Positions 3,489 to 58,827 of a DNA stretch of 64,000 bases are shown here, piece after piece. Source of the stretch: a virus (Duplodnaviria > Caudoviricetes); the IMG/VR virus record IMGVR_UViG_3300029267_004155. One strand, written 5' to 3'. The notes under the pieces are model-generated. The model did no database searches. It was not told the DNA's origin and saw only the letters and a program-made list of their open reading frames with translations. How positions within the stretch are numbered: position 1 is the first letter of the stretch; each line of letters begins with the position of its first letter. The translations under genes were made by a program, and so were the position numbers.

Positions 3489-4064
3489 ATGGAAAAGGCC
3501 ACTTTGACCGACATACTGGACATGTGGATGATGCGGACGCCGAGGCTTTTCAAGAGCGACGCGACCGCCTTGAGTTTCCTGGAGGCCTGCGCCGGGGTGG
3601 CGCGGGGAGAGGTTGGGCTCGCGCGACCGCCGGAGCTGCTGGCGGCCGGGGGCTTCTCCTCCTCCGGGGTTGACGCTGAGGAGATGAGGAAGGAGCTGGC
3701 CTTCGTGGCCGGAGAAGGAGCGGACGATGACAGACCAGGCGGACCAGGCGGAGTTGACGGCGAGGGAGTCGGAGGACAGGAGGAAGTGGCCGGAGAAGGA
3801 GGCGGAGGACACGAGAAGGTGGCCGCGGAAGGAGCAGGAGGCGGGAGGCCAGGCGGAGCCGAGGGCGAGGGGGTCGGAGGACAGGAGAAGGGGACCGGAG
3901 GACAGGAGAAGGGGGTCGGAGGACAGAGGAAGGGGGGCGAGGGACCAGGGGCCTCCGGGGAACCCTCACGTCCAGCACATGAGGGGCGTGATCCTGGAGA
4001 CGATCCGGGCCGTGCAGAAGGAGAAGCACGACTGCCTGGACTGCTTCCAGGCTTTCGCCCGTAG
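3489..4064 (+). CDS. hypothetical protein (Gly/Glu-rich tail overlaps next ORF)
   Basis: GGAGG RBS downstream of TATAAT at 3468. Confidence 0.45.
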   Translation: MEKATLTDILDMWMMRTPRLFKSDATALSFLEACAGVARGEVGLARPPELLAAGGFSSSGVDAEEMRKELAFVAGEGADDDRPGGPGGVDGEGVGGQEEVAGEGGGGHEKVAAEGAGGGRPGGAEGEGVGGQEKGTGGQEKGVGGQRKGGEGPGASGEPSRPAHEGRDPGDDPGRAEGEARLPGLLPGFRP

Positions 4065-4143
4065 CGCCCGGGACGAGGAGGAGCTCAAGAACGTGATGAA
4101 CGGCATGATGCTGGTGGGGAGGCTGCACAGCAATGACGCCTGA
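3727..4143 (+). CDS. hypothetical protein with EDRRR repeats
   Basis: AAGGAG RBS; 21-nt tandem repeats ~3870-3932. Confidence 0.55.
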   Translation: MTDQADQAELTARESEDRRKWPEKEAEDTRRWPRKEQEAGGQAEPRARGSEDRRRGPEDRRRGSEDRGRGARDQGPPGNPHVQHMRGVILETIRAVQKEKHDCLDCFQAFARSARDEEELKNVMNGMMLVGRLHSNDA

Positions 4144-4351
4144 CGAACAGCTGATCTGCACCCGGTGCGGCGCCGAGATCGAGAGCATGATGGATGTGGG
4201 CTATCTGGGGCCGAGGGACCGGGGCGACAGGAGCTGCCACCCGTTCATGGAGTTCGAGACGGTCTGCCGGGAGTGCGAGGACAAAGGTGCCGAAGGCACG
4301 TCGGGAAAATCCGGCGACGGGGTTGGCAAGTCGGCGCCCGAGGGTGTATAA
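4133..4351 (+). CDS. small zinc-finger protein
   Basis: CTRC...CREC. Confidence 0.55.
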   Translation: MTPDEQLICTRCGAEIESMMDVGYLGPRDRGDRSCHPFMEFETVCRECEDKGAEGTSGKSGDGVGKSAPEGV

Positions 4352-4352
4352 T
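4323..4352 (+). promoter_or_regulatory. sigma70-like promoter for tRNA block 1
   Basis: TTGGCA-N18-TATAAT. Confidence 0.75.
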
Positions 4353-4420
4353 GGGATTTTGGACGACGGGTGAGGGTCCTGGCCAATTCCAGGGCTGGAC
4401 CCCACAAACCGAGAGAGACG

Positions 4421-4510
4421 ATGGACAAGCAGAGTCGCAACCTGATGTTGGCATGTTGTGGGCGGGGATATTCCTCGTTCCGCCTTACGCCTGCGTCCGG
4501 GCTGCGTTGA
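4421..4510 (+). CDS. leader peptide 1 (MDKQSRNLMLACCGRGYSSFRLTPASGLR), putative attenuator
   Basis: Short ORF between promoter and terminator; contains GCGTCCGGG (4493-4501) complementary to terminator 5' arm; codons match block-1 tRNAs. Confidence 0.75.
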   Translation: MDKQSRNLMLACCGRGYSSFRLTPASGLR

Positions 4511-4529
4511 CGCTCGTCGAAGCCCCTAG

Positions 4530-4568
4530 GCCCCCGGACGCGAAAGCCTCCGGGGGTTTTTCTGTTTC
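4530..4568 (+). terminator. intrinsic terminator (attenuator 1)
   Basis: GCCCCCGGA-CGC-GAAA-GCC-TCCGGGGGT followed by T-tract, directly before the first tRNA. Confidence 0.85.
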
Positions 4569-4569
4569 T

Positions 4570-4660
4570 GGAGGGCGACCGGCTGCACGAGGAGCTCGAT
4601 TTGAAATCGGGTAGGCCCTGGAAACGGGGTCTCGGGGTTGGAGTCCCCGGCCCTCCTCCA
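4570..4660 (+). tRNA. tRNA-Ser(TGA), atypical
   Basis: Cloverleaf, long variable arm, CCA; T-loop TTGGAGT, U73. Confidence 0.75.
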
Positions 4661-4669
4661 GGATTGAAA

Positions 4670-4754
4670 GGCCCAGTGGCGGAATTGGCATACGCGCCCG
4701 ATTCAAAATCGGGTCCCTTCGGGGATGGGAGTTCGACTCTCCCCTGGGCTACCA
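4670..4754 (+). tRNA. tRNA-Leu(CAA)
   Basis: Cloverleaf with CCA. Confidence 0.93.
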
Positions 4755-4816
4755 GCAACAAATGGAACGAGATAGCGAGTCCGGGATCGAGAGAAGGAGA
4801 TGATCGACGACGAGAT

Positions 4817-4902
4817 GCGTCGGCTGAGCATTTGGCGAGCTCCCCGGTCTGTAAAATCGGCGCCTTCGGGCTTTGATGGTTCGACTCCATCTCGGCGCAC
4901 CA
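4817..4902 (+). tRNA. tRNA-Tyr(GTA)
   Basis: Cloverleaf, variable arm, CCA. Confidence 0.88.
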
Positions 4903-4915
4903 ACAACTGAACAGT

Positions 4916-5002
4916 GGTCCCGTGCCGGAATTGGCATACGGCCCCGGTTGAGGGCCGGGGGCCCGAGAGGGCGTGGGAGTTCGAGTCTCCCCGGGGTCAC
5001 CA
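4916..5002 (+). tRNA. tRNA-Leu(GAG)
   Basis: Cloverleaf with CCA. Confidence 0.92.
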
Positions 5003-5010
5003 GGAATCAT

Positions 5011-5101
5011 GGAGAGCATCCGGCCGGATGAGGAGCGCGTTTCGAAAGCGCGTAGGTCCCGGGAACGGGGCTTCGGAGTTCGAGTCTCCGGCTCTCCGCC
5101 A
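5011..5101 (+). tRNA. tRNA-Ser(CGA)
   Basis: Cloverleaf, long variable arm, G73-CCA; atypical D-arm. Confidence 0.85.
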
Positions 5102-5199
5102 AGATGTGGACCGGGGCTTCAAACCTCGGTGCAACCCATTAACGTCTTGTGGGGTATGCAAAGGCGTGACTTCGCCGGGTGGAGAGAACCCGGCAACAA

Positions 5200-5285
5200 G
5201 CCCGGGTGGTGGAATTGGCAGACACGCTGCGCTCAGACCGCAGTGCCGAAAGGCGGTGAGGGTTCGACTCCCTCCTCGGGCACCA
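5200..5285 (+). tRNA. tRNA-Leu(CAG)
   Basis: Cloverleaf with CCA. Confidence 0.93.
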
Positions 5286-5294
5286 GATTTAGAC

Positions 5295-5371
5295 GCAGTG
5301 GTAGCTCAGCCAGGTAGAGCTTCCGCCTTCCAAGCGGAAGGTCGCGCGTTCGATTCGCGTCCACTGCACCA
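5295..5371 (+). tRNA. tRNA-Gly(TCC)
   Basis: Cloverleaf with CCA; A73. Confidence 0.92.
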
Positions 5372-5387
5372 TTGATAGGAGGAAGGA

Positions 5388-5564
5388 GTGAGGGCGCCAA
5401 ACTCGGTGATACGCGAGCGACTTGACCGTTGGTGCAAGCCGTGTCGTAAGATGGACGCCAAGGCGATGGTGTGCTTGGTGGAGAGGTGCAACGTCAGACG
5501 AAAGGCGTCGTTGGCAGAAGAGTCGTGCCCGATGGGTTTCTGGGGGAAGTACGAGGAGATTTGA
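5388..5564 (+). CDS. small Cys-rich protein (R..CxxC..C..C..K..CP..W pattern)
   Basis: GGAGGAAGGA RBS, GTG start, 58 aa; absent from the ORF track. Confidence 0.65.
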   Translation: MRAPNSVIRERLDRWCKPCRKMDAKAMVCLVERCNVRRKASLAEESCPMGFWGKYEEI

Positions 5565-5569
5565 ATAGT

Positions 5570-5660
5570 GGAGAGCGTCCGGATGGACGAGGAGTCGGTT
5601 TGCTAAACCGGTAGGCCCTGGAAACGGGGTTTCGGGGTTCGATTCCCCGGCTCTCCGCCA
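5570..5660 (+). tRNA. tRNA-Ser(GCT)
   Basis: Cloverleaf, long variable arm, CCA. Confidence 0.87.
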
Positions 5661-5738
5661 AAGATTGTGTCCCGACCGGTGCTCGGGCTTGGCAGCCCGA
5701 CGGGTCCAAACGCCCGGCCAGAACTGGAAGGGACTTTC

Positions 5739-5815
5739 GGTGAGGTAGCTCAGTCCGGTAGAGCACTCGGTTGAAGCCCGAGGCGTCGTTGGTTCGATTC
5801 CGACTCTCACCACCA
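5739..5815 (+). tRNA. tRNA-Phe(GAA)
   Basis: Cloverleaf with CCA. Confidence 0.93.
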
Positions 5816-5820
5816 ATTTG

Positions 5821-5904
5821 GCCCGAGTGGCGGAATGGCAGACGCGGCCGGTTTAAGTTCGGCTGTCGAAAGGCGTGCAGGTTCGATCCCTGTCTCGGGC
5901 ACCA
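5821..5904 (+). tRNA. tRNA-Leu(TAA)
   Basis: Cloverleaf with CCA. Confidence 0.92.
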
Positions 5905-5906
5905 AG

Positions 5907-5930
5907 GTGTAGCAGTGTAGCAGTGTAGCA
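5907..5930. repeat. tandem repeat (GTGTAGCA)x3
   Basis: Three exact copies in a tRNA spacer. Confidence 0.9.
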
Positions 5931-5942
5931 AAGGAGATTTTT

Positions 5943-6018
5943 GGCGGGGTGGCTGAGAGGTTTAGGCGCGCGGTTGCAACCCGCGTTCATGAGGGTTCGA
6001 GTCCCTCCCCCGTCTCCA
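5943..6018 (+). tRNA. tRNA-Cys(GCA)
   Basis: Cloverleaf, U73, CCA. Confidence 0.92.
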
Positions 6019-6026
6019 TTTTCGAT

Positions 6027-6196
6027 GAGGCCGTCCACCTAATGGCAAGGGCCGGAGCGGAGCGCCGCATAGCCCGTCGAGGCGCAAGCGCGACGGGTGA
6101 CGCCTGCGAGTCCAAAGGGCTGTGACATGGCCAGCCACGCGGGCTGCGGAATGGGCAGGACGCACCGGGATGCGGGTTCGAGTCCCGTCGGCTTCA
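6027..6196 (+). ncRNA. tRNA-like RNA with ~100-nt structured insert replacing the anticodon loop
   Basis: Acceptor GAGGCCG/CGGCTTC, D-loop TAATGGCAA, T-arm GCGGG-TTCGAGT-CCCGT, CCGG/CCGG stem enclosing the insert. Confidence 0.65.
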
Positions 6197-6204
6197 GACT
6201 TTGA

Positions 6205-6295
6205 GGAGAGCATCCGGCTGCATGAGGAGCGCCGTTGGAAACGGCGTCGGTCCGGGAAACCGGGCTTCGGGGTTGGAGTCCCCGGCTCTCCGCCA
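6205..6295 (+). tRNA. tRNA-Ser(GGA), atypical elbow
   Basis: Cloverleaf, long variable arm, CCA; T-loop TTGGAGT. Confidence 0.82.
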
Positions 6296-6327
6296 GTATG
6301 TTAAGGGCAACCCAAAGGAGGTTGCTG

Positions 6328-6993
6328 ATGAAGATCGAGGGCTGTCGGGTGGCCGCGGCGATGGTCGTCTATCACACCTACGGCCTGATGAGGAAGGCGG
6401 TGGCGTCGGTGAGGAGGTTCTATCCGGACATCGACTTCTTCGTGGTGGACAACACCGAGGGGGTCGCTCCGAGGAACGTCAGGAAATGGGCGAAGAGGAA
6501 CCGGGTGAGGCTTATCCGGGTGGGGTCCAACATCGGCCATGGGCCGGGGATGAACGTGGCGCTGTGGGCGACGGAGGCCGACGTGCTGCTGATGCTGGAC
6601 AGCGATACGGAGATGTACGAGCCGAACTTGCTGGAGGACGCCCTGGCGAAGGTCGGGGGCCGGAAGACCAGGTGGTACGGGATAGGGCCGGTCGCGCCGG
6701 TGAAAAGGCCGGTGGGAGGCGAGAAGGTTTCGTACCTTCATTCGTCGACGTGCCTCTTCCATGTCGGGTACTATCGGCGGTTCGAGCCGTTCACGGACCA
6801 CGGGCTTGCGCTGGTGGCGCCGATGTACGAGCTGAGGGTCAAGAGGATGGAGTCGATGCTGGTGGACTTCCCGGTCCAGGACTACGTGCATCACCTCTGG
6901 AGAGGAACCAGGGACTTTTGCAGGGGCCACCAGCTGGACAGGTCTTACGAAAGCCGGAAGTCGGCCTCCTGGTGGGAGCCTGGGAAGTTTTGA
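6328..6993 (+). CDS. glycosyltransferase family 2
   Basis: VVDN, N.GHG.GMN and LDSD motifs; AAGGAGG RBS. Confidence 0.85.
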   Translation: MKIEGCRVAAAMVVYHTYGLMRKAVASVRRFYPDIDFFVVDNTEGVAPRNVRKWAKRNRVRLIRVGSNIGHGPGMNVALWATEADVLLMLDSDTEMYEPNLLEDALAKVGGRKTRWYGIGPVAPVKRPVGGEKVSYLHSSTCLFHVGYYRRFEPFTDHGLALVAPMYELRVKRMESMLVDFPVQDYVHHLWRGTRDFCRGHQLDRSYESRKSASWWEPGKF

Positions 6994-6999
6994 TAATGA

Positions 7000-7077
7000 G
7001 CGCCCGTAGCTCAGTCTGAATAGAGCGCCCCGCTACGGACGGGGAAGTCGCAGGTTTGAATCCTGCCGGGCGTGCCA
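7000..7077 (+). tRNA. tRNA-Arg(ACG)
   Basis: Cloverleaf with CCA; D-loop GA with T-loop TTTGAAT. Confidence 0.88.
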
Positions 7078-7084
7078 ACTTTGA

Positions 7085-7160
7085 GGACCTGTAGTTCAGT
7101 TGGAAGAACATCGGTCTCCGAAGCCGAAGGTCGCGGGTTCGAGTCCCGCCGGGTCCTCCA
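7085..7160 (+). tRNA. tRNA-Arg(CCG)
   Basis: Cloverleaf with CCA. Confidence 0.92.
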
Positions 7161-7167
7161 GAATTAT

Positions 7168-7244
7168 CCGTCTGTAGCTCAGTTGGTTAGAGCGGTCGTC
7201 TCATACGCGACAGGTTGTAGGTTCGATCCCTACCAGACGGACCA
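7168..7244 (+). tRNA. tRNA-Met(CAT), elongator-type
   Basis: Cloverleaf with CCA, paired 1:72. Confidence 0.88.
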
Positions 7245-7347
7245 TCCTCTTTGAAGACGGGCCTCTGGCGGTGTACAATAGGCCAGGAGGTGCGCCGCGA
7301 GGCTTGAGGCGAGGTGACGATCGACGACTACGAGAAGGAGCGGGGCG

Positions 7348-7971
7348 ATGACGGGAGTGCTTGACAGGCGGGTCCTGGTGCTTGACGGCTCGTGGAGGCC
7401 GGTGGACGTGACGAACGTGGTCGGGGCCCTGTGCAAGGTGTGCGCGGGGAAGGCCGACGTCGTCGACAATGACTACTCCCTCTACGGCTTCGAGGAGTGG
7501 GTCGAGAGCTGGTCCGACGCGGCCAGGGCCGCGGAGATGGCCGAGTCGGGGCGCCCCCTCGTGCGTTCCAGGAGCTTCGCCTTCCCGGCGCCGGAGGTCA
7601 TCCGGCTCGTCCGGAAGGTCCGCTTCTGGCGTCGTCGGGCCAAGCTCTGCCGGAAGGCGATCTTCGCCCGCGACCGGAACGTCTGTCAGTACTGCGGCAA
7701 GAAGCTGCCGGCCTCCAAGCTCAACATCGACCACGTGGTCCCCAAGTCCAGGGGTGGAGGCACGACCTGGGAGAACCTGGTTCTCTCGTGCGTGAGGTGC
7801 AACCACAAGAAGGACAGCCGGACGCCCAGGGAGGCGGGCCTGACGCTCCTGAGGGAGCCGAGGGAGCCGCACTGGGCCGTCGTCAACAGGCGTGGCATCC
7901 TGAGGGACCCTCCCAGGTCGTGGGAGGACTTCCTCGGCGCCATGTACTGGGACGTCGAGCTGGAGGGCTGA
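7348..7971 (+). CDS. HNH endonuclease (McrA-like)
   Basis: RDRNVCQYCG...IDHVVPKSRGG...ENLVLSCVRCNHKK. Confidence 0.95.
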   Translation: MTGVLDRRVLVLDGSWRPVDVTNVVGALCKVCAGKADVVDNDYSLYGFEEWVESWSDAARAAEMAESGRPLVRSRSFAFPAPEVIRLVRKVRFWRRRAKLCRKAIFARDRNVCQYCGKKLPASKLNIDHVVPKSRGGGTTWENLVLSCVRCNHKKDSRTPREAGLTLLREPREPHWAVVNRRGILRDPPRSWEDFLGAMYWDVELEG

Positions 7972-8003
7972 CGGGCCGGTTCTCGGAAAAATCTCCGAGG
8001 GGG

Positions 8004-8033
8004 CTGGTAAGACTGGCGTTGACGGCGTATGAT
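8004..8033 (+). promoter_or_regulatory. sigma70-like promoter for tRNA block 2
   Basis: CTGGTA-N18-TATGAT with the GGCG pre -10 context shared by other promoters here. Confidence 0.65.
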
Positions 8034-8048
8034 AATAGGCAAGGAGCA

Positions 8049-8129
8049 ATGTACTCAATGAACCCGATGGCCAGACACGAAGCGATCGAGCAGCCCGCGA
8101 ACGCGGGTGCCGGGGGTGCTGTGTTCTGA
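8049..8129 (+). CDS. leader peptide 2 (MYSMNPMARHEAIEQPANAGAGGAVF), putative attenuator
   Basis: AAGGAG RBS; GGGTGCCGGGGGT (8105-8117) is the perfect 13-nt complement of terminator arm 8147-8159; codons match block-2 tRNAs. Confidence 0.8.
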   Translation: MYSMNPMARHEAIEQPANAGAGGAVF

Positions 8130-8145
8130 CCCTGATAGGTCCAAG

Positions 8146-8186
8146 GACCCCCGGCACCCCGAAAAGGGCGTCGGGGGTTTTTCTTT
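8146..8186 (+). terminator. intrinsic terminator (attenuator 2)
   Basis: GACCCCCGGCACCCC-GAAAA-GGGCGTCGGGGGTT plus T-tract. Confidence 0.85.
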
Positions 8187-8222
8187 GGAGTCGAGAGAAG
8201 GAGGGCGAGTCACGAGCAGGAC

Positions 8223-8300
8223 GGGCCGGTAGCTCAGTTGGCTAAGAGCACCTGACTTGCAATCAGGATGTCCAGGGTTCGATCCCCTGTCGGTCCACCA
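8223..8300 (+). tRNA. tRNA-Ala(TGC)
   Basis: Cloverleaf, G3:U70, CCA. Confidence 0.94.
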
Positions 8301-8311
8301 ACAATTCAGAT

Positions 8312-8389
8312 GCGCCTCGGAGCTCGGTCAGGAAGAGCGCCCGGTCGTGGCCCGGGAGGCCGCGGGTTCGAGTCCCGTCGGGGCGCCCA
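8312..8389 (+). tRNA. tRNA-His(GTG)
   Basis: G-1:C73, CCA; C33. Confidence 0.85.
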
Positions 8390-8398
8390 GGATCATGC

Positions 8399-8476
8399 GG
8401 TGGCGTAGCTTAGTTGGCCGAAAGCGCTGTCCTGTCACGGCAGAGAACGAGGGTTCAAATCCCTTCGTCACCGCCA
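8399..8476 (+). tRNA. tRNA-Asp(GTC)
   Basis: Cloverleaf, G73-CCA. Confidence 0.92.
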
Positions 8477-8483
8477 ATATCAC

Positions 8484-8559
8484 GGCCACGTAGCTCAGCG
8501 GCAGGAGCGTCCGGTCCACACCCGGATGGTCGAAGGTTCGAGTCCTTCCGTGGTCACCA
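8484..8559 (+). tRNA. tRNA-Val(CAC)
   Basis: Cloverleaf with CCA; C33. Confidence 0.87.
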
Positions 8560-8565
8560 GTTCGA

Positions 8566-8639
8566 TGCCCGGTGGTGTAATGGCAGCACAGCTGGTTCTG
8601 GCCCAGTCGGTCAGGGTTCGAGTCCTTGCCGGGCAGCCA
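8566..8639 (+). tRNA. tRNA-Gln(CTG)
   Basis: U1:A72, cloverleaf, CCA. Confidence 0.93.
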
Positions 8640-8647
8640 GATATCGA

Positions 8648-8724
8648 GCGCCCGTAGCTCAGGGGATACGAGCAGCGCACTTCTAATGCGCGGGTCGAAG
8701 GTTCGAATCCTTCCGGGCGTGCCA
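8648..8724 (+). tRNA. tRNA-Arg(TCT)
   Basis: Cloverleaf with CCA. Confidence 0.93.
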
Positions 8725-8726
8725 AT

Positions 8727-8803
8727 GGGCGGTTAGTTCAGATGGCTAGAACGTCAGCTCGACATGCTGAAGGTTGCGAGTTCGAGTCTCGCACCGCCCA
8801 CCA
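8727..8803 (+). tRNA. tRNA-Val(GAC)
   Basis: Cloverleaf with CCA; C33. Confidence 0.88.
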
Positions 8804-8834
8804 TCAGTCAAGGAGAGAGGCGAGAGCAACATGT

Positions 8835-8911
8835 CGGCCCATAGCTCAGTTGGTAAGAGCGAACGGCTGATAACCGTTAGGTCGGAGGTTCGATTCCTCC
8901 TGGGCCGACCA
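8835..8911 (+). tRNA. tRNA-Ile(GAT)
   Basis: Cloverleaf with CCA. Confidence 0.94.
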
Positions 8912-8925
8912 ACAATTGAATATGT

Positions 8926-9000
8926 GTCCCCATCGTCTAGCGGCCAGGATGCGAGGCCCTCAACCTCGTGACGCCGGTTCGAGTCCGGCTGGGGATGCCA
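8926..9000 (+). tRNA. tRNA-Glu(CTC)
   Basis: Cloverleaf with CCA; C33. Confidence 0.9.
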
Positions 9001-9112
9001 GGATTGAGGGCTGCAATATGGCCGGAAAGCAAGTCGCGGGCTTTGCCGAGTTCCAAGACGCGCAGAAGCGGGTAGACGGCAGTCCTGGGGGAGCGGCAAA
9101 CTCCCCCGAACT

Positions 9113-9189
9113 CGGGATGTGGCTCAGTCTGGTAGAGCGTCCGGCTGGGGGCCGGAAGGTCGCAGGTTCGATTCCTGCCATCCCGACCA
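9113..9189 (+). tRNA. tRNA-Pro(GGG)
   Basis: Cloverleaf with CCA. Confidence 0.94.
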
Positions 9190-9199
9190 TAGACTTGAG

Positions 9200-9278
9200 A
9201 GCGGGGTGAATGTCGATTTGGTAAGACGCCAGGCTCATAACCTGGAGCATGTGGGTTCAACTCCCACCCCCGCCACCA
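9200..9278 (+). tRNA. tRNA-fMet(CAT), initiator-type
   Basis: A1xC72 mismatch, CAT anticodon, CCA. Confidence 0.82.
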
Positions 9279-9343
9279 ATATCGGGACGTGACGAGCGGT
9301 TTGACTCCGTCGCCTGAAGCGTGAATGGGCAAGCGTCCCACTT

Positions 9344-9418
9344 GGCCCCATCGTCTAGTGGCAAGGACGTCGGGTTTTCATCCCGGAGACGGGGGTTCGA
9401 TTCCCCCTGGGGCTACCA
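9344..9418 (+). tRNA. tRNA-Glu(TTC)
   Basis: Cloverleaf with CCA. Confidence 0.93.
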
Positions 9419-9426
9419 GTTTTAGA

Positions 9427-9498
9427 TGGCCCGTAGCTCAGCGGTAGAGCATGCGACTCATAATTGCGGGGTCCTCGGTTCAATCCCGAGCGGGCCAA
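9427..9498 (+). tRNA. tRNA-Ile2/Met(CAT)
   Basis: Cloverleaf; anticodon arm GCGA-CTCATAA-TTGC resembles Ile2; ends CTA rather than CCA. Confidence 0.8.
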
Positions 9499-9667
9499 CT
9501 AGTTTTTTGTTGCGATGATGGCCGGTACCGGCGAGGGAAAGTCATCAGATGGGCGCCAACCGGGTATTGCTCGGAAGAAGGCACTGTCGGAAATCGGTGG
9601 TGGGGTGACGTCCGAAGCCGCCGTTCGCCGACGCCCGTTCCGTCTGGCGGCGGCCGCGACATCTTAT

Positions 9668-9744
9668 CGGGATGTGGCTCAGTCTGGTAGAGCGCCTCGT
9701 TCGGGGCGAGGAAGCCGGAGGTTCAAATCCTCTCATCCCGACCA
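9668..9744 (+). tRNA. tRNA-Pro(CGG)
   Basis: Cloverleaf with CCA. Confidence 0.94.
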
Positions 9745-9749
9745 GTTTT

Positions 9750-9826
9750 CGGGCGGTGGCGCAGTTTGGAAGCGCGCGGCGTTTGGGGCGCTGAGGTCGC
9801 CGGTTCGAGCCCGGCCCGCCCGACCA
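9750..9826 (+). tRNA. tRNA-Pro(TGG)
   Basis: Cloverleaf with CCA. Confidence 0.92.
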
Positions 9827-10006
9827 GTCTCGGGATGTGTCCAGACGTGGAGAAACTGGACCGCAAAAACAAAAAACTCTCGCAGTAACGAGACCCGAAA
9901 GGGATAGGAAGTGAGGAAACTGCGTCAACAACACTCGGCCTCCGTAGCTCTGGGCGCTTACACCTACGGACCTTTTCGCAGGCAGGAAGATGGAGGAAGA
10001 CGATTG

Positions 10007-10894
10007 ATGGACCTGATAGTGGAAACCGACATCGGGCACGATCCCGACGACTACTTCACGCTGTGCCACCTGCACGCCGCGGGTGTCAGGATCAGGGCGA
10101 TCCTCGTCTCTCCCGGACACCGGTACCAGGTCGCCATCGCGAGGGCCTTCTGCGCGGAGGTCGGCCTGGATGTCCCTGTCGGGATCGCGAAGGAGACGAG
10201 CGTCGTCAAGACCGGAGGGACGTCGTTCCACATGGCGCTCCTGAGGAAGATGGGACATCCGACCGAGGCGGACCCCGACGGCTTCGGCCACGAGCTTCTG
10301 GGCGGGGTTCTCGAGGACCATCCGGACAGCGACGTCTTCATCTGCGGGCCGGTGAAGAACGTGGGCCGCTACATGATCGAGCATCCGGAGAGGGAGTTCG
10401 GGCGGGTCACGATGCAGGGTGGCTTTCTGGGATACGACCTTCATGGCCATGACGTCGAGAGGCTTCCCAAGTTCAAGGGCAAGGTGGCCGTGCCTACCTT
10501 CAACTTGAACGGGTCGAAGGACGAGGGCTTGTTCCTGGCGTCGCGGGCGAAGGTCGGGGACCTGAGGTTCGTCGGCAAGAACGTCTGTCACACGATCCTG
10601 TACGACAGGGCGAGGCACGAGTGGATGAGGCGCAGGAAGCCTTCCTGCCGGGCGATGGAGCTGTTCATGGAAGGCATGGACCTCTATCTCTACGGGAAGA
10701 GGCACCGGGAGAAGAAGTTCCACGACCCGACCGCTGCCGTGTGCCATCTGCATCCCGAGATCGGGACCTGGGTTGGCGGAAGGTTGTACCGGGAGGGAGG
10801 CTGGTGGGGGACGAAGGTCGAGGAGGGGACGAACACCAGGGTCTTGGCCGATGTTGACCGGGAGGGGCTTTGGGACTTTATCAGAGGGTGTTAG
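10007..10894 (+). CDS. nucleoside hydrolase-like protein (IU-NH fold)
   Basis: ETDIGHDPDD Asp cluster, GPVKN, MQGG, TFN and HDP motifs. Confidence 0.85.
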   Translation: MDLIVETDIGHDPDDYFTLCHLHAAGVRIRAILVSPGHRYQVAIARAFCAEVGLDVPVGIAKETSVVKTGGTSFHMALLRKMGHPTEADPDGFGHELLGGVLEDHPDSDVFICGPVKNVGRYMIEHPEREFGRVTMQGGFLGYDLHGHDVERLPKFKGKVAVPTFNLNGSKDEGLFLASRAKVGDLRFVGKNVCHTILYDRARHEWMRRRKPSCRAMELFMEGMDLYLYGKRHREKKFHDPTAAVCHLHPEIGTWVGGRLYREGGWWGTKVEEGTNTRVLADVDREGLWDFIRGC

Positions 10895-10913
10895 GGCCCG
10901 TCCGGCCATGGAT

Positions 10914-10987
10914 TGCCCCGTGGTGTAATGGCAGCACAAGTGTCTTTGGAGCACTCGGTTCTGGTTCGAGTCCAGGCGGGGCAGCCA
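10914..10987 (+). tRNA. tRNA-Gln(TTG)
   Basis: Cloverleaf with CCA. Confidence 0.93.
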
Positions 10988-11049
10988 TCTCCTGGGCGCG
11001 GGCAGGCCGGGGCCGGCCTCGATCCCCGTCGGAAAAACCGAGAGGTCGC

Positions 11050-11078
11050 TTGGCAAATTCGGGCGAGCGGCGTATAAT
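11050..11078 (+). promoter_or_regulatory. sigma70-like promoter for tRNA block 3
   Basis: TTGGCA-N17-TATAAT. Confidence 0.8.
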
Positions 11079-11102
11079 AAGGCAACGAAAGGCAACTACG
11101 TC

Positions 11103-11186
11103 ATGCTGACGGGAACCACAACGAAAGACAATACCTGGGGCGGCAAGCCCGCCCACGGGGGTCTTTCGCTTGGAGTTCAAGCGTAG
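11103..11186 (+). CDS. leader peptide 3 (MLTGTTTKDNTWGGKPAHGGLSLGVQA), putative attenuator
   Basis: GAAAGG RBS; CGGGGGTCT (11156-11164) complementary to terminator arm AGACCCCCG (11207-11215); codons match block-3 tRNAs. Confidence 0.78.
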   Translation: MLTGTTTKDNTWGGKPAHGGLSLGVQA

Positions 11187-11206
11187 ACGGTGGCGAGCGC
11201 GCTGTG

Positions 11207-11243
11207 AGACCCCCGGCCCGAAAGGGCGCGGGGGTTTTTCTTT
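11207..11243 (+). terminator. intrinsic terminator (attenuator 3)
   Basis: GACCCCCG-GCCC-GAAA-GGGC-G-CGGGGGTT plus T-tract abutting tRNA-Gly. Confidence 0.85.
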
Positions 11244-11319
11244 GCGGCAGTAGCTCAGTCGGAAGAGCACCTGCTTGCCAAGCAGGAGGCCACGGGTTCG
11301 AGCCCCGTCTGTCGCACCA
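11244..11319 (+). tRNA. tRNA-Gly(GCC)
   Basis: Cloverleaf with CCA; A73. Confidence 0.92.
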
Positions 11320-11330
11320 GGTTTCATGAT

Positions 11331-11407
11331 AGGTCCGTAGCTCAATCGGCTAGAGCACCGGTCTCCAAAACCGGCGGTTCTCGGTTCGACCCCGAGCGGG
11401 CCTGCCA
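11331..11407 (+). tRNA. tRNA-Trp(CCA)
   Basis: Cloverleaf, G73-CCA. Confidence 0.93.
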
Positions 11408-11411
11408 AGAA

Positions 11412-11487
11412 CGGCTCGTAGCTCAGTTGGTAGAGCATCCGCCTTTTAAGCGGAACGCCGAGGGTTCGAGTCCCTCCGAGCCGACCA
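11412..11487 (+). tRNA. tRNA-Lys(TTT)
   Basis: Cloverleaf with CCA. Confidence 0.93.
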
Positions 11488-11501
11488 GAAATTCGGAGCG
11501 A

Positions 11502-11540
11502 GTGGAAAACCTTGCTCGTTCGGCAATGTAGGGTGGAGAC
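11502..11540 (+). promoter_or_regulatory. conserved motif copy 1 (GTGGAAAA-N12-GGCAAT..GGG)
   Basis: One of 9 copies with invariant spacing. Confidence 0.75.
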
Positions 11541-11568
11541 GAGGTTCAACAGAAGGAGATGTGATCGA

Positions 11569-11642
11569 GGTTCCGTAGCTTAGAGGTAGAGCGGGCGGCT
11601 CGGACCGCGTGGCCGCAGGTTCGAGCCCTGCCGGGACCTCCA
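11569..11642 (+). ncRNA. tRNA-like RNA with 6-nt anticodon loop
   Basis: Intact acceptor, D and T arms plus CCA; GCGG-CTCGGA-CCGC. Confidence 0.7.
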
Positions 11643-11663
11643 ACTCGACAGGAGAGTCTATTC

Positions 11664-11740
11664 GCACCCGTAGCTCAGTTGGCTAGAGCGGCTGACTCTT
11701 AATCAGCAGGTTCTCGGTTCGAACCCGAGCGGGTGTGCCA
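11664..11740 (+). tRNA. tRNA-Lys(CTT)
   Basis: Cloverleaf with CCA. Confidence 0.94.
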
Positions 11741-11751
11741 ACAATTCAGAT

Positions 11752-11847
11752 GCCGATGTGGTGTAATGGTAGCACACCGGGTAAACCGGAGGTTTTCCTC
11801 GATCAGCGCGCGTAGTCGAGGCGGTTCAAGTCCAGACATCGGCTCCA
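11752..11847 (+). ncRNA. tRNA-like RNA with shortened anticodon arm and a hairpin inserted at the T-stem
   Basis: GCCGATG/CATCGGC-T-CCA, canonical D-arm, CCGG-GTAAA-CCGG, extra CCTCGAT/GTCGAGG hairpin. Confidence 0.7.
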
Positions 11848-11965
11848 ACAACTTAGGCGACACCTGCCTGTCCGAAGAAGGTCCGGCGACGAGCGGGGAC
11901 GAACCCGTGGACGACCAGGCTGGAGGAGAAGTGGTGTGACTCGGGTGAGAGCAGGCCCGCATTAA

Positions 11966-12042
11966 GCCCGGATAGCTCAGTGGCTAAGAGCAGCCGATTC
12001 GTAATCGGCAGGTCGAGGGTTCGAGTCCCTCTCTGGGCTCCA
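11966..12042 (+). tRNA. tRNA-Thr(CGT)
   Basis: Cloverleaf with CCA. Confidence 0.93.
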
Positions 12043-12045
12043 GAC

Positions 12046-12119
12046 TCCCCCATGGTGTAATGGTAGCACGTAGGACTGTTAATCCTTTGGTCCTGGTTCG
12101 AGTCCAGGTGGGGGAACCA
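12046..12119 (+). tRNA. tRNA-Asn(GTT)
   Basis: Cloverleaf with CCA. Confidence 0.92.
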
Positions 12120-12169
12120 ACTCAAGCCGGGTCGACGAGATCGGCCGTCAGGGAAAAGGAGGCAGGGAC

Positions 12170-13612
12170 ATGAAGAGGGAAGAGACGATTCGGAAGCTGT
12201 ACGAGTGCGTTCAGACGCGTCCGCGTCCGGAGGATGTTGCCGAGGTCGTGCTGGAGGCATTGCTTCCGCGGCTGTCGCTGGCCCAGAGGAACGTCTTGAA
12301 GCAGGCGACCAGGATCTCGACGAGGAGCCACCTCCTGGGCTACTCGTCCATGGCCGCGGACTTCCATCGCCCGACGGGCATGGAGAAGCCGGTCAAGGTG
12401 GCGTCCGAGCTCTTCTCCGTTCCGATGCTGTCGGTGGAGGAGTGCCTCGACCCGGAGAGGGTGGAGGTCTTCGTCCAGGGCGTGTCGTCGGCCATCGGCA
12501 AGAGCTACGGGCAGTCCGACTTCCTGAAGCACCGGATGAACCGGGAGCAGCGGGCGCAGGCGGGCCTCGACATGGGGCACCGCGCCTACAACAAGCGCTT
12601 CAGGCTCCTGGGCCGGATGGAGTCCAAGCTCCTGAGGATGGTCCGCGAGCGGAAGAAGTACGTCCTGACCCGGATCGGCAAGAGCGGCTTCGCCGTGGAG
12701 ATCGACTTCGACGACTTCTCCGCCGACCTGGGCACGGCCTGCTTCGTGGCGTACATGAGCGCGAGGATGAGCCTTCGGAGCACCTTCACGAACGACTCCC
12801 AGGTTCGGGCCTTCGACGTGGTGGCCAAGATGCTGTACGACCGCCTGACCAAGTCCAACACGGCCAGGTGGGACGTCGTGGCCGCCGTCTATCCGGTGGA
12901 CAGGGTCCTGAGGCTCCTGACGGACTACCAGAAGGGCGCCATGCTCGCGAGGGCGTGGGGTCTCCTGGAGGACGCGTGCGACCTTCTCACGGAGGTCTGG
13001 GAGGGTTCCGGCGGCGGCATCGACCTGGAGAGGATGGTGGTGCGGCGCGGGTGCGACTCGTCGACGTGGAACCAGTCGGCCGGCGGGTGGAACAAGGCCC
13101 GGGACCACTGGGTGTCGATGCTTCACGCCATGGGCATGGGCTCCATGCTTGAGGCCCTGTGCCCGGGCAAGGTCATGAGGCTGATGGCGGCGGACGTGGT
13201 CCGTTGGCACCTGGCCTCGGGCGGCGACGTCCATCCGGGGACCAAGGTGTGGGCTGAGCTTCCGTACCCGTGGGACGTCGTCGCGGGCAAGGAGCGGTGC
13301 ACGAAGGAGATGGTGGTGGCCGCGTGCGAGAGGCACGGCGTCGAGCCGGCGTCCTGGGTCGGGCCGAGGAGGCGTGCCCGGGCCGTGGAGTTCACGCCGA
13401 CCCCCGAGCTGGTGCACGGCGTCGCCGTGTCGAGCCCGGGACTGGCTCTCGCCCTGCGGAGGGCCGGGGTCTTCTCGGCCAAGGCCCTCAGGGCCGAGCA
13501 TCTCCCGGCCGGCGGCTTCCATGTCGACAGGGACGGCGACGGCTTCGCGCTCGGGGCGACCGACGCGAATTCTCACGGGTCGGGCCGGAAGGTCCGGGCC
13601 GCGGGCGTATAG
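12170..13612 (+). CDS. hypothetical protein embedded in the tRNA array
   Basis: 480 aa, AGGAGG RBS, typical codon usage; no function recognised. Confidence 0.85.
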   Translation: MKREETIRKLYECVQTRPRPEDVAEVVLEALLPRLSLAQRNVLKQATRISTRSHLLGYSSMAADFHRPTGMEKPVKVASELFSVPMLSVEECLDPERVEVFVQGVSSAIGKSYGQSDFLKHRMNREQRAQAGLDMGHRAYNKRFRLLGRMESKLLRMVRERKKYVLTRIGKSGFAVEIDFDDFSADLGTACFVAYMSARMSLRSTFTNDSQVRAFDVVAKMLYDRLTKSNTARWDVVAAVYPVDRVLRLLTDYQKGAMLARAWGLLEDACDLLTEVWEGSGGGIDLERMVVRRGCDSSTWNQSAGGWNKARDHWVSMLHAMGMGSMLEALCPGKVMRLMAADVVRWHLASGGDVHPGTKVWAELPYPWDVVAGKERCTKEMVVAACERHGVEPASWVGPRRRARAVEFTPTPELVHGVAVSSPGLALALRRAGVFSAKALRAEHLPAGGFHVDRDGDGFALGATDANSHGSGRKVRAAGV

Positions 13613-13625
13613 TAGGAGTGGATGC

Positions 13626-13702
13626 AGGTGTGTAGCTCAGTGGTAGAGCGTCCCGGCTCTTTTTCCGGGAGGACGCAGGTTCGAGCCCTGCCTCACCTGC
13701 CA
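13626..13702 (+). ncRNA. tRNA-like RNA with 6-bp stem and 8-nt anticodon loop (copy A)
   Basis: TCCCGG-CTCTTTTT-CCGGGA, canonical D and T arms, GCCA end. Confidence 0.7.
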
Positions 13703-13709
13703 ATCTTGT

Positions 13710-13787
13710 CTCGACGTAGCTCAGTGGTAGAGCGTCCCGGCTCTTTTTCCGGGAGGACGCAGGTTCGAGCCCTGTCGTTCGAGGCCA
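13710..13787 (+). ncRNA. tRNA-like RNA with 8-nt anticodon loop (copy B, different acceptor stem)
   Basis: 59-nt exact repeat of copy A body (13632-13690 = 13716-13774); bulged acceptor, GCCA end. Confidence 0.65.
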
Positions 13788-13895
13788 TTTGGTTTTCGAC
13801 CCCTGTCGGTTCGACTCCGACGTCCGGCTCCTATACTAGTTGCACGGGAGGCGGCCACACCGGTTGGAAGGGTGGGCCCGGGGGTCTTTCTTGAC

Positions 13896-13965
13896 GTCCC
13901 CGGCTCAATGGAGAGCTGGGCACTTGTGGCGCCCAGACGCCAGTTCGATTCTGGCAGGGGCTCCA
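13896..13965 (+). pseudogene. degenerate compact tRNA-like element
   Basis: T-arm GCCAG-TTCGATT-CTGGC, TCCA end, shortened acceptor/D linker; anticodon ambiguous (TGT or GTG). Confidence 0.55.
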
Positions 13966-14138
13966 TCCTCCGTTCCGCGTCCCTGGTCCGAGCCCGAGGG
14001 CAGGCCGCGTCTTTCTTCTCCTCCTTGGCGGCGTATAATCCCATGACGAATCATGGAGGGCGCTGACGACGTAGAATGGGATGGAGAGCTTTGCGGACTG
14101 GTGGCGGTAGCCAGAGAGCGAGAACAAGGAGATGCGAG

Positions 14139-14354
14139 ATGATCTATCGGGGCAAATGGTTCACGGTGAGGGTCGAGGAGCTGGCGGAGGTTGGCGTCTC
14201 GACGTCGCAGGGGAACAAGGGTGAGGTCGTGCGCGGGCTGCACGTGACGCACAGGTCGGGGACGCAGAACCGGACGTCTTACGCCGACGAGGCGGAGCTC
14301 ATGAGGGACTACGAGGGGCTCGCCGCGGCCATGGAGAAGGTGGACGACAAGTAG
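14139..14354 (+). CDS. hypothetical protein
   Basis: AAGGAG RBS; TATAAT at 14034. Confidence 0.65.
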   Translation: MIYRGKWFTVRVEELAEVGVSTSQGNKGEVVRGLHVTHRSGTQNRTSYADEAELMRDYEGLAAAMEKVDDK

Positions 14355-14366
14355 GAGGGGAGAGCC

Positions 14367-15005
14367 ATGTTCGACGGAGTCAAGCTGTCGAAGAAGTTCC
14401 TGTCCAGGCGAGACACGTTCTTCGTGTCGCCGTCCTGGTTCGGCTGTGGGCACTGGGCGGTCCGGAGGGAGATGCTTCTTTCCCCGGACCTTTCCGGCCT
14501 GGGAGCTGGCGGGGTGGAGCTGACGACGGGCGAGATTGCCACGAAGCTCGGCCTCGAGCCTTACAGGGCGCAGTGGCATTGGAGGGAGGACGACATGTTC
14601 GAGGCCATGCTCTGCCCGGAGCCGGACGGTGCCGAGAGGTTCCGCCGGCAGGAGTGGGTGAAGGTGGGCTGCGACTCGGGTCGGAATGTCGACTCGGTCC
14701 TGTTCCAGGGGGATGACTCGGGGACCCCGTGCTTCATCGACAGGGACTTCGTCCAGACGTTCGACGTCGACGAGCTCGTGATGGGCGCCGGCGGGAAGGT
14801 CGCGATGCACGATCCGGAAAGGCGCGTCGTCATCGCCAGGAGGGTCGGGGACCTTCCGCGCGTGATGGTGACGAAGGATCGGGTCATCCGGGAGGAGGAC
14901 CTGATGGCGGCGGTCCGGGACGCGTGCGCCGAAGCGAAGCTCGATCCGGGTGTCGGTGGCCAGCTCTCGTATGCGATCGGCAGGAGGATAGGGGTGGCGG
15001 TGTGA
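14367..15005 (+). CDS. hypothetical protein
   Basis: 212 aa with RBS. Confidence 0.75.
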   Translation: MFDGVKLSKKFLSRRDTFFVSPSWFGCGHWAVRREMLLSPDLSGLGAGGVELTTGEIATKLGLEPYRAQWHWREDDMFEAMLCPEPDGAERFRRQEWVKVGCDSGRNVDSVLFQGDDSGTPCFIDRDFVQTFDVDELVMGAGGKVAMHDPERRVVIARRVGDLPRVMVTKDRVIREEDLMAAVRDACAEAKLDPGVGGQLSYAIGRRIGVAV

Positions 15006-58235: not shown

Positions 58236-58827
58236 CGACTGGACTCAGAGCGTCGAGGTCCAGAACATCATGGAGGAGTTCGTTGACAAGTTCCCCCAGG
58301 TGTTCGAGACCTTCGATCCGCAGGGCCTTCATGTGATCCACACCCAGAAGAAGAAGAGGGGGCCGGTCGTCACGCTGCGCAGCGTGACCTATCCGAACGA
58401 GGTCTTCGTTGGGAAGCCGTACATCGTCGAGGTGCTGGAGGAGAGGTGGAAGGGTCTCGACAAGAAGAGGAAGCGCCTGTGGGTCTTTCGGACCATGTGC
58501 TCGATCCCGCTCGGCGGCTTCGACCAGGAGAGCAAGTTCTACGCCAAGAAGTGCAAGCCGGACATCCAGATGTTCAGCCTGGAGTTCGCCGCGTGCGGAG
58601 GGGTTCCGAACTGGATGGAGAATCCCGCGGCGACCGATCCGCTGGAGGTGTCGCAGGAGGAGATGACGGAGCGGGCGAAGGCGCTGGCTGCCGGCGCGGA
58701 GGCCATTCCGCCGCTGGAGGACGCGGGGGACGACGTTGTCCCGGAAGAGGGTTCCGACGGCGTCACTAGGGTTCCGATGACCGTGGGTGACATCGTCGAC
58801 GAGCCGCGGCAGAGGAAGACGGGGTGA
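58222..58827 (+). CDS. phage metallopeptidase-like protein lacking HExxH
   Basis: YIVEV..E.W..LD..RK.L.VF pattern followed by PD.Q.F. Confidence 0.55.
   Translation: MARNSDWTQSVEVQNIMEEFVDKFPQVFETFDPQGLHVIHTQKKKRGPVVTLRSVTYPNEVFVGKPYIVEVLEERWKGLDKKRKRLWVFRTMCSIPLGGFDQESKFYAKKCKPDIQMFSLEFAACGGVPNWMENPAATDPLEVSQEEMTERAKALAAGAEAIPPLEDAGDDVVPEEGSDGVTRVPMTVGDIVDEPRQRKTG

Follow-up and report, generated by a model that had tools for sequence, protein, structure and literature searches.

Phage transfer RNA (tRNA) arrays are usually seen as constitutively expressed aids to codon usage or as decoys for defences that target tRNA, and their regulation is, to our knowledge, essentially unknown. Whether and how such genes are switched on is the question raised by a stretch of 64,000 nucleotides (nt) from a virus of the Caudoviricetes (Duplodnaviria; IMG/VR record IMGVR_UViG_3300029267_004155), analysed here and termed the window, in which 38 tRNA genes (called by ARAGORN and confirmed by Rfam) lie between 4670 and 13787. 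The third tRNA block of this array is preceded by a segment (11050-11243; unit 3) which the sequence-only reading had taken for an attenuator. The present analysis supports that reading through a promoter, a first ATG, a terminator abutting the first tRNA gene, a perfect antiterminator of 9 base pairs (bp), an anti-antiterminator, a codon match to the unit's own block and recurrence of the design in unrelated phages. With good probability, the segment is a ribosome-mediated (leader-peptide) transcription attenuator gating tRNA block 3 of this giant phage, and the tRNAs of this block are probably made only when ribosomes decode the leader codons slowly.

Architecture of unit 3

The elements of unit 3 and the block that follows it, with ORF standing for open reading frame, are as follows.

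11050-11078, + strand: predicted promoter P3 (TTGGCA, 17-nt spacer, TATAAT; 11/12 against the sigma-70 consensus)
11069-11078, + strand: extended motif GGCGTATAAT within P3, carrying the -10 element (11073-11078)
11087-11092, + strand: weak Shine-Dalgarno-like GAAAGG, 10 nt before the ATG, read from the sequence
11103-11186, + strand: leader ORF 3, 27 codons and TAG (11184-11186)
11109-11147, + strand: codon census, codons 3-15 (T-G-T-T-T-K-D-N-T-W-G-G-K), 8/13 read by block 3
11122-11137, + strand: region 1, anti-antiterminator strand, inside codons 7-12
11138-11154, + strand: small apical hairpin GGGCGG/CCGCCC, codons 12-17
11156-11168, + strand: region 2, with the antiterminator strand CGGGGGUCU (11156-11164)
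11206-11243, + strand: intrinsic terminator (regions 3 and 4), GC-rich stem 11206-11238, GAAA loop, U-tract 11235-11243
11244-12119, + strand: tRNA block 3 (ARAGORN; Rfam tRNA model), Gly-gcc (start 11244), Trp-cca (11331), Lys-ttt (11412), a tRNA with a 6-nt anticodon loop (11569-11642), Lys-ctt (11664), Ser-gga (long, 11752-11847; an ARAGORN call with 30.8 bits in Rfam), Thr-cgt (11966) and Asn-gtt (12046)

P3 is among the two best promoter matches in 3500-15000, and its transcript, predicted to start near 11085, has its first start codon in the ATG at 11103. The motif GGCGTATAAT, with at most one mismatch, occurs 11 times in the window (3464, 4343, 8024, 11069, 13604, 14030, 23431, 26381, 40421, 45014 and 56594), all on the + strand, as compared with 0.46 occurrences expected, and is probably the extended -10 element of the host-type promoters of this phage.

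Three mutually exclusive helices, the defining layout of trp-type attenuators, are found downstream of the promoter. In the first (1:2), seen in the minimum-free-energy fold of the full leader, region 1 is paired to 11156-11168; taken alone, this hairpin, which includes the small apical hairpin (-10.7 kcal/mol), reaches -27.9 kcal/mol (z = -4.7). In the second (2:3), CGGGGGUCU of region 2 pairs with AGACCCCCG (11207-11215) of the terminator 5' arm over a perfect 9 bp; together with its two inner hairpins, this structure reaches -32.5 kcal/mol (z = -3.0) and is the best fold without the terminator 3' arm. The third (3:4) is the terminator itself (-27.2 kcal/mol, z = -4.4), of which the U-tract ends at 11243, one base before tRNA-Gly, and the core CCCCCGG...GAAA...CGGGGGTTTTTCT is common to the terminators of all three units of the array. 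Thus, unit 3 combines a short ORF near the transcription start, an intrinsic terminator between this ORF and the tRNA genes, and a choice between 2:3 and 3:4 with 1:2 lying over the regulatory codons, as is characteristic of leader-peptide attenuators.

The placement of the codons relative to these helices is informative as well. With a ribosome footprint assumed to extend from -15 to +11 nt around the A site, stalls at codons 6-15 would unpair region 1 while sparing region 2. Codons read by block 3 account for 7/10 of these stall codons against 2/16 elsewhere in the leader (hypergeometric P ~0.005), and a similar coincidence of stall positions and matched codons is seen in the leaders of the two sister units and in several foreign leaders considered below (pooled odds ratio 2.7, P = 7e-4).

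A structured leader of this kind might also serve mainly in RNA processing or stability, with the 5' leader being removed by RNase P/E, the hairpin protecting the tRNA precursor or timing its maturation, and the ORF being incidental. tRNA precursors often have structured leaders, and in unit 3 the terminator hairpin immediately precedes the point at which RNase P would cut tRNA-Gly. Nevertheless, a processing role leaves the U-tract, the exclusive helices, the codon census and its block specificity unexplained, and is considered highly improbable.

Codon match between leader ORF 3 and its block

Leader 3 begins with M-L-T-G-T-T-T-K-D-N-T-W-G-G-K, and its matched codons within the census are ACG (positions 3 and 7), AAA (8), AAT (10), TGG (12), GGC (13 and 14) and AAG (15); the amino acids carried by block-3 tRNAs are encoded by 12 of the 13 census codons. 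The claim of the sequence-only reading that the six canonical tRNAs of block 3 (Gly-gcc, Trp-cca, Lys-ttt, Lys-ctt, Thr-cgt and Asn-gtt) each have a cognate codon in the first 15 leader codons holds true. Coverage becomes 6/7 once Ser-gga, which has no cognate in codons 3-15, is counted, and the 6-nt-loop tRNA (11569) is likewise without a cognate codon there. Over the whole ORF, 9/26 codons are read by block 3, as compared with 7 by block 1 and 6 by block 2, the decoding capacity of block 3 being 10 codons (18% of phage codons) and that of blocks 1 and 2 being 21 and 22 codons, respectively. Phage codon usage was derived from 48 long + strand ORFs, according to which the AAA (0.2%), AAT (0.44%) and ACA (0.17%) codons of leader 3 rank with the rarest in the genome.

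The match exceeds chance for leader 3 alone, with P ~0.0015-0.035 across four null models. Fourteen random codons drawn from phage codon usage cover all six tRNAs with P = 0.0017. For the best 13-codon window, in which 8 codons match, P is 0.0036 when codons are drawn from phage usage and 0.0015 when nucleotides are shuffled; random re-partition of the array tRNAs gives P = 0.035. Among 206 short ATG ORFs in the six frames of the window, leader 3 falls in the top 3, and the remaining two frames of its own DNA yield 2/13 matches.

Sister units in the same array

Two further units of the same design are present upstream in the window, each followed by a tRNA block of different composition.

4323-4568, + strand: sister unit 1, promoter, 29-codon leader (4421-4510) and terminator
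Downstream of unit 1, + strand: tRNA block 1, Leu/Tyr/Ser/Gly/Phe/Cys/Arg/Met
8024-8190, + strand: sister unit 2, promoter -10 element, 26-codon leader (8049-8129) and terminator
Downstream of unit 2, + strand: tRNA block 2, Ala/His/Asp/Val/Gln/Arg/Ile/Glu/Pro/Met

Leader 1 has 18/28 codons read by its own block (6 by block 2 and 5 by block 3) and an antiterminator of 9 bp (4493-4501 with 4533-4541), and leader 2 has 14/25 codons read by its own block (5 by block 1 and 4 by block 3) and an antiterminator of 13 bp (8105-8117 with 8147-8159). In the resulting 3x3 leader-by-block matrix, the own block is the best for each leader after allowing for block size; the diagonal sums to 41 against 26.2 +/- 3.8, a value reached in 1/20,000 random re-partitions of 35 tRNAs into blocks of the same sizes (P ~5e-5). 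The specificity of the codon match of leader 3 for its own block is supported by these observations.

Analogous units in other phages

Metagenome contigs from ENA, JGI and Logan, the longest of 298 kb, carry identical copies of the region (100% over its length). Searches for relatives of unit 3 gave no orthologue: megablast of the window array against cultured phages yielded no match, protein-based locus searches in IMG/VR reached only a distant contig without tRNAs, and neither the exact junction pattern nor the promoter-to-terminator pattern was matched in IMG/VR. A single metagenome pattern scan returned four unrelated matches, one of them an ordinary tRNA-Met gene. The contigs L006, L008, L033 and L034, which carry homologues of neighbouring genes, have no tRNA arrays beside the homologue, and tblastn of the 480-amino-acid (aa) protein and the nucleoside hydrolase encoded in the array found no match among cultured phages. 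Within 4300-14200, no Rfam leader family or T-box (RF00230) matched at E <= 1, the matches besides tRNAs being at chance level. As no leader 3 orthologue was present in the collections reached, other examples of the design were reached via homologues of the genes neighbouring the window array.

The richest example is the IMG/VR contig 3300028840_008160 (L010/L025; 330 kb, GC 38%), reached through the alignment of the 480-aa protein family, which has 58 tRNAs and four tRNA blocks each preceded by a Shine-Dalgarno sequence, a short ORF and a terminator. Its leaders, along with the two from phages in culture that gene callers list as hypothetical proteins, are given below.

L025:1556-1639: leader ...CNSNYFTSSFSN..., before Phe, Phe, Asn, Ser, Cys, Asn
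L025:11962-12090: leader with 14 consecutive own-block codons, before a 22-tRNA block
L010:1539-1655: leader ...DMDMRQVTCAATTIR..., before Met, Thr, Thr, Ile, Ile, Ala x3, Asp, Arg, Met, Arg, Val
L010:7369-7431: leader ...RRPQPQQPRR..., before Pro, Gln, Pro, Gln, Gln, Arg, Pro, Arg, Pro
L046:482-616 (record 58381-58515): gp86 of Bacillus phage G, annotated as a hypothetical protein
L047:1519-1647 (record 339118-339246), minus strand of L047: AUZ95228 of Agrobacterium phage Atu_ph07, annotated as a hypothetical protein

In the leader at L010:7369-7431, a distinct synonymous codon is used for each isoacceptor (CGC/CGA/CGG, CCC/CCG/CCA and CAG/CAA). The 4x4 matrix of this contig has its maximum on the diagonal (64/123 against 42.6 +/- 5.2), a sum attained in 1/50,000 re-partitions (P ~2e-5), and a second phage (L013/L026) has in-frame homologues, of similar length, of two of its leaders. 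The 17-kb ENA scaffold L035, reached via a nucleoside hydrolase homologue, has two leaders: one reads ...IIDMHIRRWDR... before Arg x3, Trp, Ile, Asp x2, Met and His x2, with three Arg codons (AGA, CGC and AGG) for three Arg isoacceptors, and the other reads ...EPEPEEPP... before Pro and Glu tRNAs. In phage G, gp86 is made almost wholly of Cys, Ser, Trp, Phe, Glu, Asp, Thr and Tyr codons (25/43 codons matched, shuffle P = 2e-5); a terminator comes next, and then precisely the tRNAs for these amino acids, with tRNA-Cys at 58584 of the record. Its kinship to the design lies in leader composition only. The leader codons of AUZ95228 match the downstream Ala, Arg, Phe, Pro, Ile, Tyr, Trp, Met and Glu tRNAs, and an equivalent of the antiterminator (10 bp) reaches just upstream of the terminator arm, with 6 bp found within the arm by ungapped search.

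The structural hallmark recurs along with the codons. The ORF 3' end is complementary to the terminator 5' arm in the leaders of the window, L010/L025, L013/L026 and L035, over 9-15 bp in most leaders examined and 6-15 bp by ungapped search. The design therefore recurs with codons that co-vary with the controlled tRNAs, in analogous units matched to their own blocks, an orthologue of leader 3 itself not being among them. In mycobacteriophage Bxz1, a crude scan found no terminator-linked leader, and the tRNA region of T5 has small ORFs without a codon census and no codon-matched leader. A candidate leader of KVP40 was set aside, since its block reads almost all codons and the match is therefore uninformative.

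These comparisons bear on the simplest alternative, namely that there is no regulation at all: the ORF would be a chance frame, or an independent gene for a small protein that has a promoter to itself and ends in a constitutive terminator, and the tRNAs would arise from upstream read-through or from an unseen promoter. Leader ORF 3 is short, its Shine-Dalgarno sequence is weak and gene callers list such ORFs as hypothetical proteins (as with gp86 and AUZ95228); further, read-through from block 2 is possible because no terminator is evident after tRNA-Gln (10914-10987). Against this stand the block-specific and frame-specific codon match, which is significant both in the window and in an unrelated phage, the coincidence of matched codons with the structural sensing window, and the recurrent complementarity of ORF 3' ends and terminator arms. 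Moreover, the U-tract abuts the first tRNA gene and so leaves no room for another promoter. Absence of regulation is thus judged very unlikely.

Proposed mechanism and its weak points

The sequence parts, the helices with their energies, the block-specific match and its recurrence are observed; from these, we infer that the leader is translated, that a stall drives the structural switch and that the supply of tRNA, rather than of amino acid, is the signal. RNA polymerase would start at P3 and a ribosome would begin the 27-codon leader. Fast decoding of codons ~6-15 (ACA ACG AAA GAC AAT ACC TGG GGC GGC AAG) would carry the ribosome over region 2 toward the stop codon; with region 2 covered or re-paired with region 1, 3:4 would form and transcription would end in the U-tract, just short of tRNA-Gly. 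If charged tRNA were scarce for any of these codons, the ribosome would stall on region 1 and the free region 2 would pair with the terminator 5' arm, upon which polymerase would read into the Gly, Trp, Lys, Lys, Ser, Thr and Asn tRNA genes. Once the new phage tRNAs were available the stall would be lifted, so that the circuit as a whole would work by negative feedback.

Several points weigh against this interpretation. The Shine-Dalgarno-like GAAAGG is weak and spaced by 10 nt from the ATG. If wobble is applied strictly, block 3 leaves five of the 13 census codons (GGA, ACC x2, ACA and GAC) unread, and leader 3 does not sample Ser-gga. Leader 3 also departs from most other leaders in that 20 nt separate region 2 from the stop codon, so that a terminating ribosome would sit between regions 2 and 3, not on region 2. 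A transcript ending before region 4 favours 2:3 at equilibrium even without a ribosome, and default termination would therefore rest on co-transcriptional folding kinetics. Since no orthologue of leader 3 was found in the collections reached and the retrieved phage copies are all 100% identical, leader 3 offers no covariation signal. Finally, an ungapped search found no convincing antiterminator for gp86 of phage G.

The nature of the signal needs separate consideration, as the attenuator could sense amino-acid starvation or general translation stress and act as a stress or timing switch instead of as tRNA-specific feedback. Classical attenuators sense tRNA charging, and a missing and an uncharged tRNA are indistinguishable by ribosome stalling. 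The five Thr codons of the census are reminiscent of thrL, and three of them (ACC x2 and ACA) are unread by any block-3 tRNA. However, the output of the unit is tRNA, which is unable to relieve amino-acid starvation, and codons track the downstream isoacceptors in at least nine leaders from five phages. Separate synonymous codons for individual isoacceptors (AAA/AAG in leader 3, AGA/CGC/AGG in L035, and the Arg, Pro and Gln sets at L010) fit a tRNA census and not amino-acid sensing. A starvation or stress switch is hence regarded as unlikely. Given that the output is tRNA and that the codons follow isoacceptors and not just amino acids, the attenuator is likely to sense demand, with tRNA supply as the signal.

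Threonine codons and anticodon nucleases

The sequence-only reading had remarked that the ACC (x2) and ACA codons of leader 3 lack a tRNA in the window, and this is borne out, as Thr-cgt is the sole Thr tRNA there according to ARAGORN. Its suggestion that Thr genes have been lost from the block is not supported; no orthologue of block 3 was found in the collections reached. A TGT anticodon can be read, as it had proposed, in the 9-nt loop of the degenerate element at 13896; this element has no special likeness to Thr tRNAs as compared with other tRNAs, and its Rfam match is partial and tRNA-like only (13902-13955, 30 bits). The 6-nt-loop tRNA (11569-11642) was considered as a Thr relative and rejected: it resembles instead the 8-nt-loop tRNAs 13626 and 13709, which together with L010:11380 are nearest to it in T-arm and overall sequence. 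In the L010 phage, all three Thr isoacceptors are present and the leader uses ACG, ACA and ACC, which illustrates a complete set and is not proof of loss in the window.

tRNA-Lys is a target of the anticodon nuclease PrrC. The earlier statement that it is also a target of PARIS is correct (PMC11464382). The link of leader 3 to anticodon nucleases is a conjecture.

Comparison with known systems

Enterobacterial multivalent leaders include thrL (Thr and Ile codons) and ilvL of ilvGMEDA (Leu, Val and Ile), besides trpL, hisL, leuL and pheL. The phage units share with these a promoter-proximal short ORF rich in regulatory codons, the helices 1:2, 2:3 and 3:4 with an intrinsic terminator and, as proposed for unit 3, a region-1 stall which frees the antiterminator and the sensing of more than one amino acid. 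They differ in their proposed control of tRNA genes instead of biosynthetic enzymes, and in sampling up to six or more tRNA species, often with one synonymous codon per isoacceptor, where enterobacterial leaders have runs of one or a few codons. Further, they are phage-encoded, occur one per tRNA block and have no sequence similarity to the enterobacterial leaders (Rfam leader families, E <= 1).

The pheM leader of the pheST operon attenuates an aminoacyl-tRNA synthetase gene and resembles the phage units, as interpreted here, in being a leader-peptide attenuator of a translation-apparatus component, with feedback via the decoding speed of its own codons; it differs in its synthetase target, its single amino acid (Phe) and its location on a bacterial chromosome, and does not control tRNA genes. 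As in T-box riboswitches (RF00230), a terminator/antiterminator decision would report the state of specific tRNAs. T-boxes, however, bind uncharged tRNA directly, without translation, and control synthetase or amino-acid genes, whereas sensing by unit 3 is proposed to occur through the translating ribosome. No description of leader-peptide control of tRNA genes was found in the literature searched.

A rationale for switching phage tRNAs on when host tRNAs are destroyed is provided by PARIS, which cleaves host tRNA-Lys and is neutralised by the tRNA-Lys of T5, the phage tRNA rescuing infection (PMC11464382). Like T5, the phage studied here supplies its own tRNA-Lys, block 3 carrying two Lys tRNAs; unlike the present analysis, the T5 work concerns the tRNA itself and not its regulation (PMC11464382).

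Other features of the array

The window has 65% G+C and a GC skew that is positive throughout, with genes on the + strand. Proteins interspersed in the tRNA array are a GT2 glycosyltransferase (6329-6993), an HNH endonuclease (7348-7971), an inosine-uridine nucleoside-hydrolase-like protein (9911-10894; score under the Pfam cut-off) and the 480-aa protein (12170-13612). The last belongs to no Pfam family; its homologues number >1000 and come, among other sources, from Myxococcota, Ktedonobacter and many contigs of giant phages. It adjoins 8-nt-anticodon-loop tRNA-like genes (13626-13787 in the window) in most phage contigs examined (16/20 distinct relatives; the loci are L006, L007, L009-L017, L019 and L022-L024, besides the window), their four-base 'anticodons' being cttt, cttg, cttc, ctca, ctgg, ggga and cgat. 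From this neighbourhood, the 480-aa gene and the 8-nt-loop tRNAs appear to be a conserved gene-tRNA module, to which no function is assigned.

Two long tRNA-like elements outside the ARAGORN calls (4569-4657 and ~6200-6296) have a class II-type long arm and anticodon loops readable as TGA and GGA. The former immediately follows the terminator 1 U-tract, and its score against the tRNA-Sec model is 30.6 bits; both may be a source of match for the TCC codons of leader 1. Within 13880-13966, CCCGGGGGTCTTTCTT resembles the 3' arm and U-tract of the three window terminators and abuts the degenerate tRNA-like element, and the segment may be what is left of a fourth unit of attenuator and tRNA. The arrays of several giant phages examined, and likewise those of phage G and Bxz1, include tRNAs of suppressor type, whose anticodon is cta (amber) or tta (ochre) (L025:7941 and 15386; L026:3490; L014:12973; L041:2633; L044:2137).

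Implications for phage translation

Attenuator 3 is a clear instance of its class, though not the strongest. What appears to be new relative to the thr and ilv leaders, judging from the units compared here, is the tRNA-gene target, the many-codon census, the phage ownership and the provision of one unit per block. On a broader and decidedly tentative view, which we hold to be possible yet doubtful, the three leaders and their counterparts in giant phages (including G and Atu_ph07) would act as per-block 'codon census' sensors of host tRNA loss, switching on only the matching replacement tRNAs. If this view is true, the codon census would be an inducible counter-defence as well as a homeostasis circuit for translation, responding for example to cleavage of tRNA-Lys or tRNA-Thr by anticodon nucleases or to degradation of host tRNAs in the course of infection. 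The attenuator model as such is directly testable because the design is present in cultured Atu_ph07, and in phage G with matching composition and no clear antiterminator. A trp-type attenuator with a leader that spells out the codons of its own tRNAs would imply that phages gauge how fast each codon is decoded and produce tRNAs according to need, and leader-peptide attenuation would reach from amino-acid metabolism to tRNA genes. The design would also furnish a simple sequence signature for annotating the small 'hypothetical proteins' found beside tRNA arrays, along with natural, compact sensors of individual tRNA pools.

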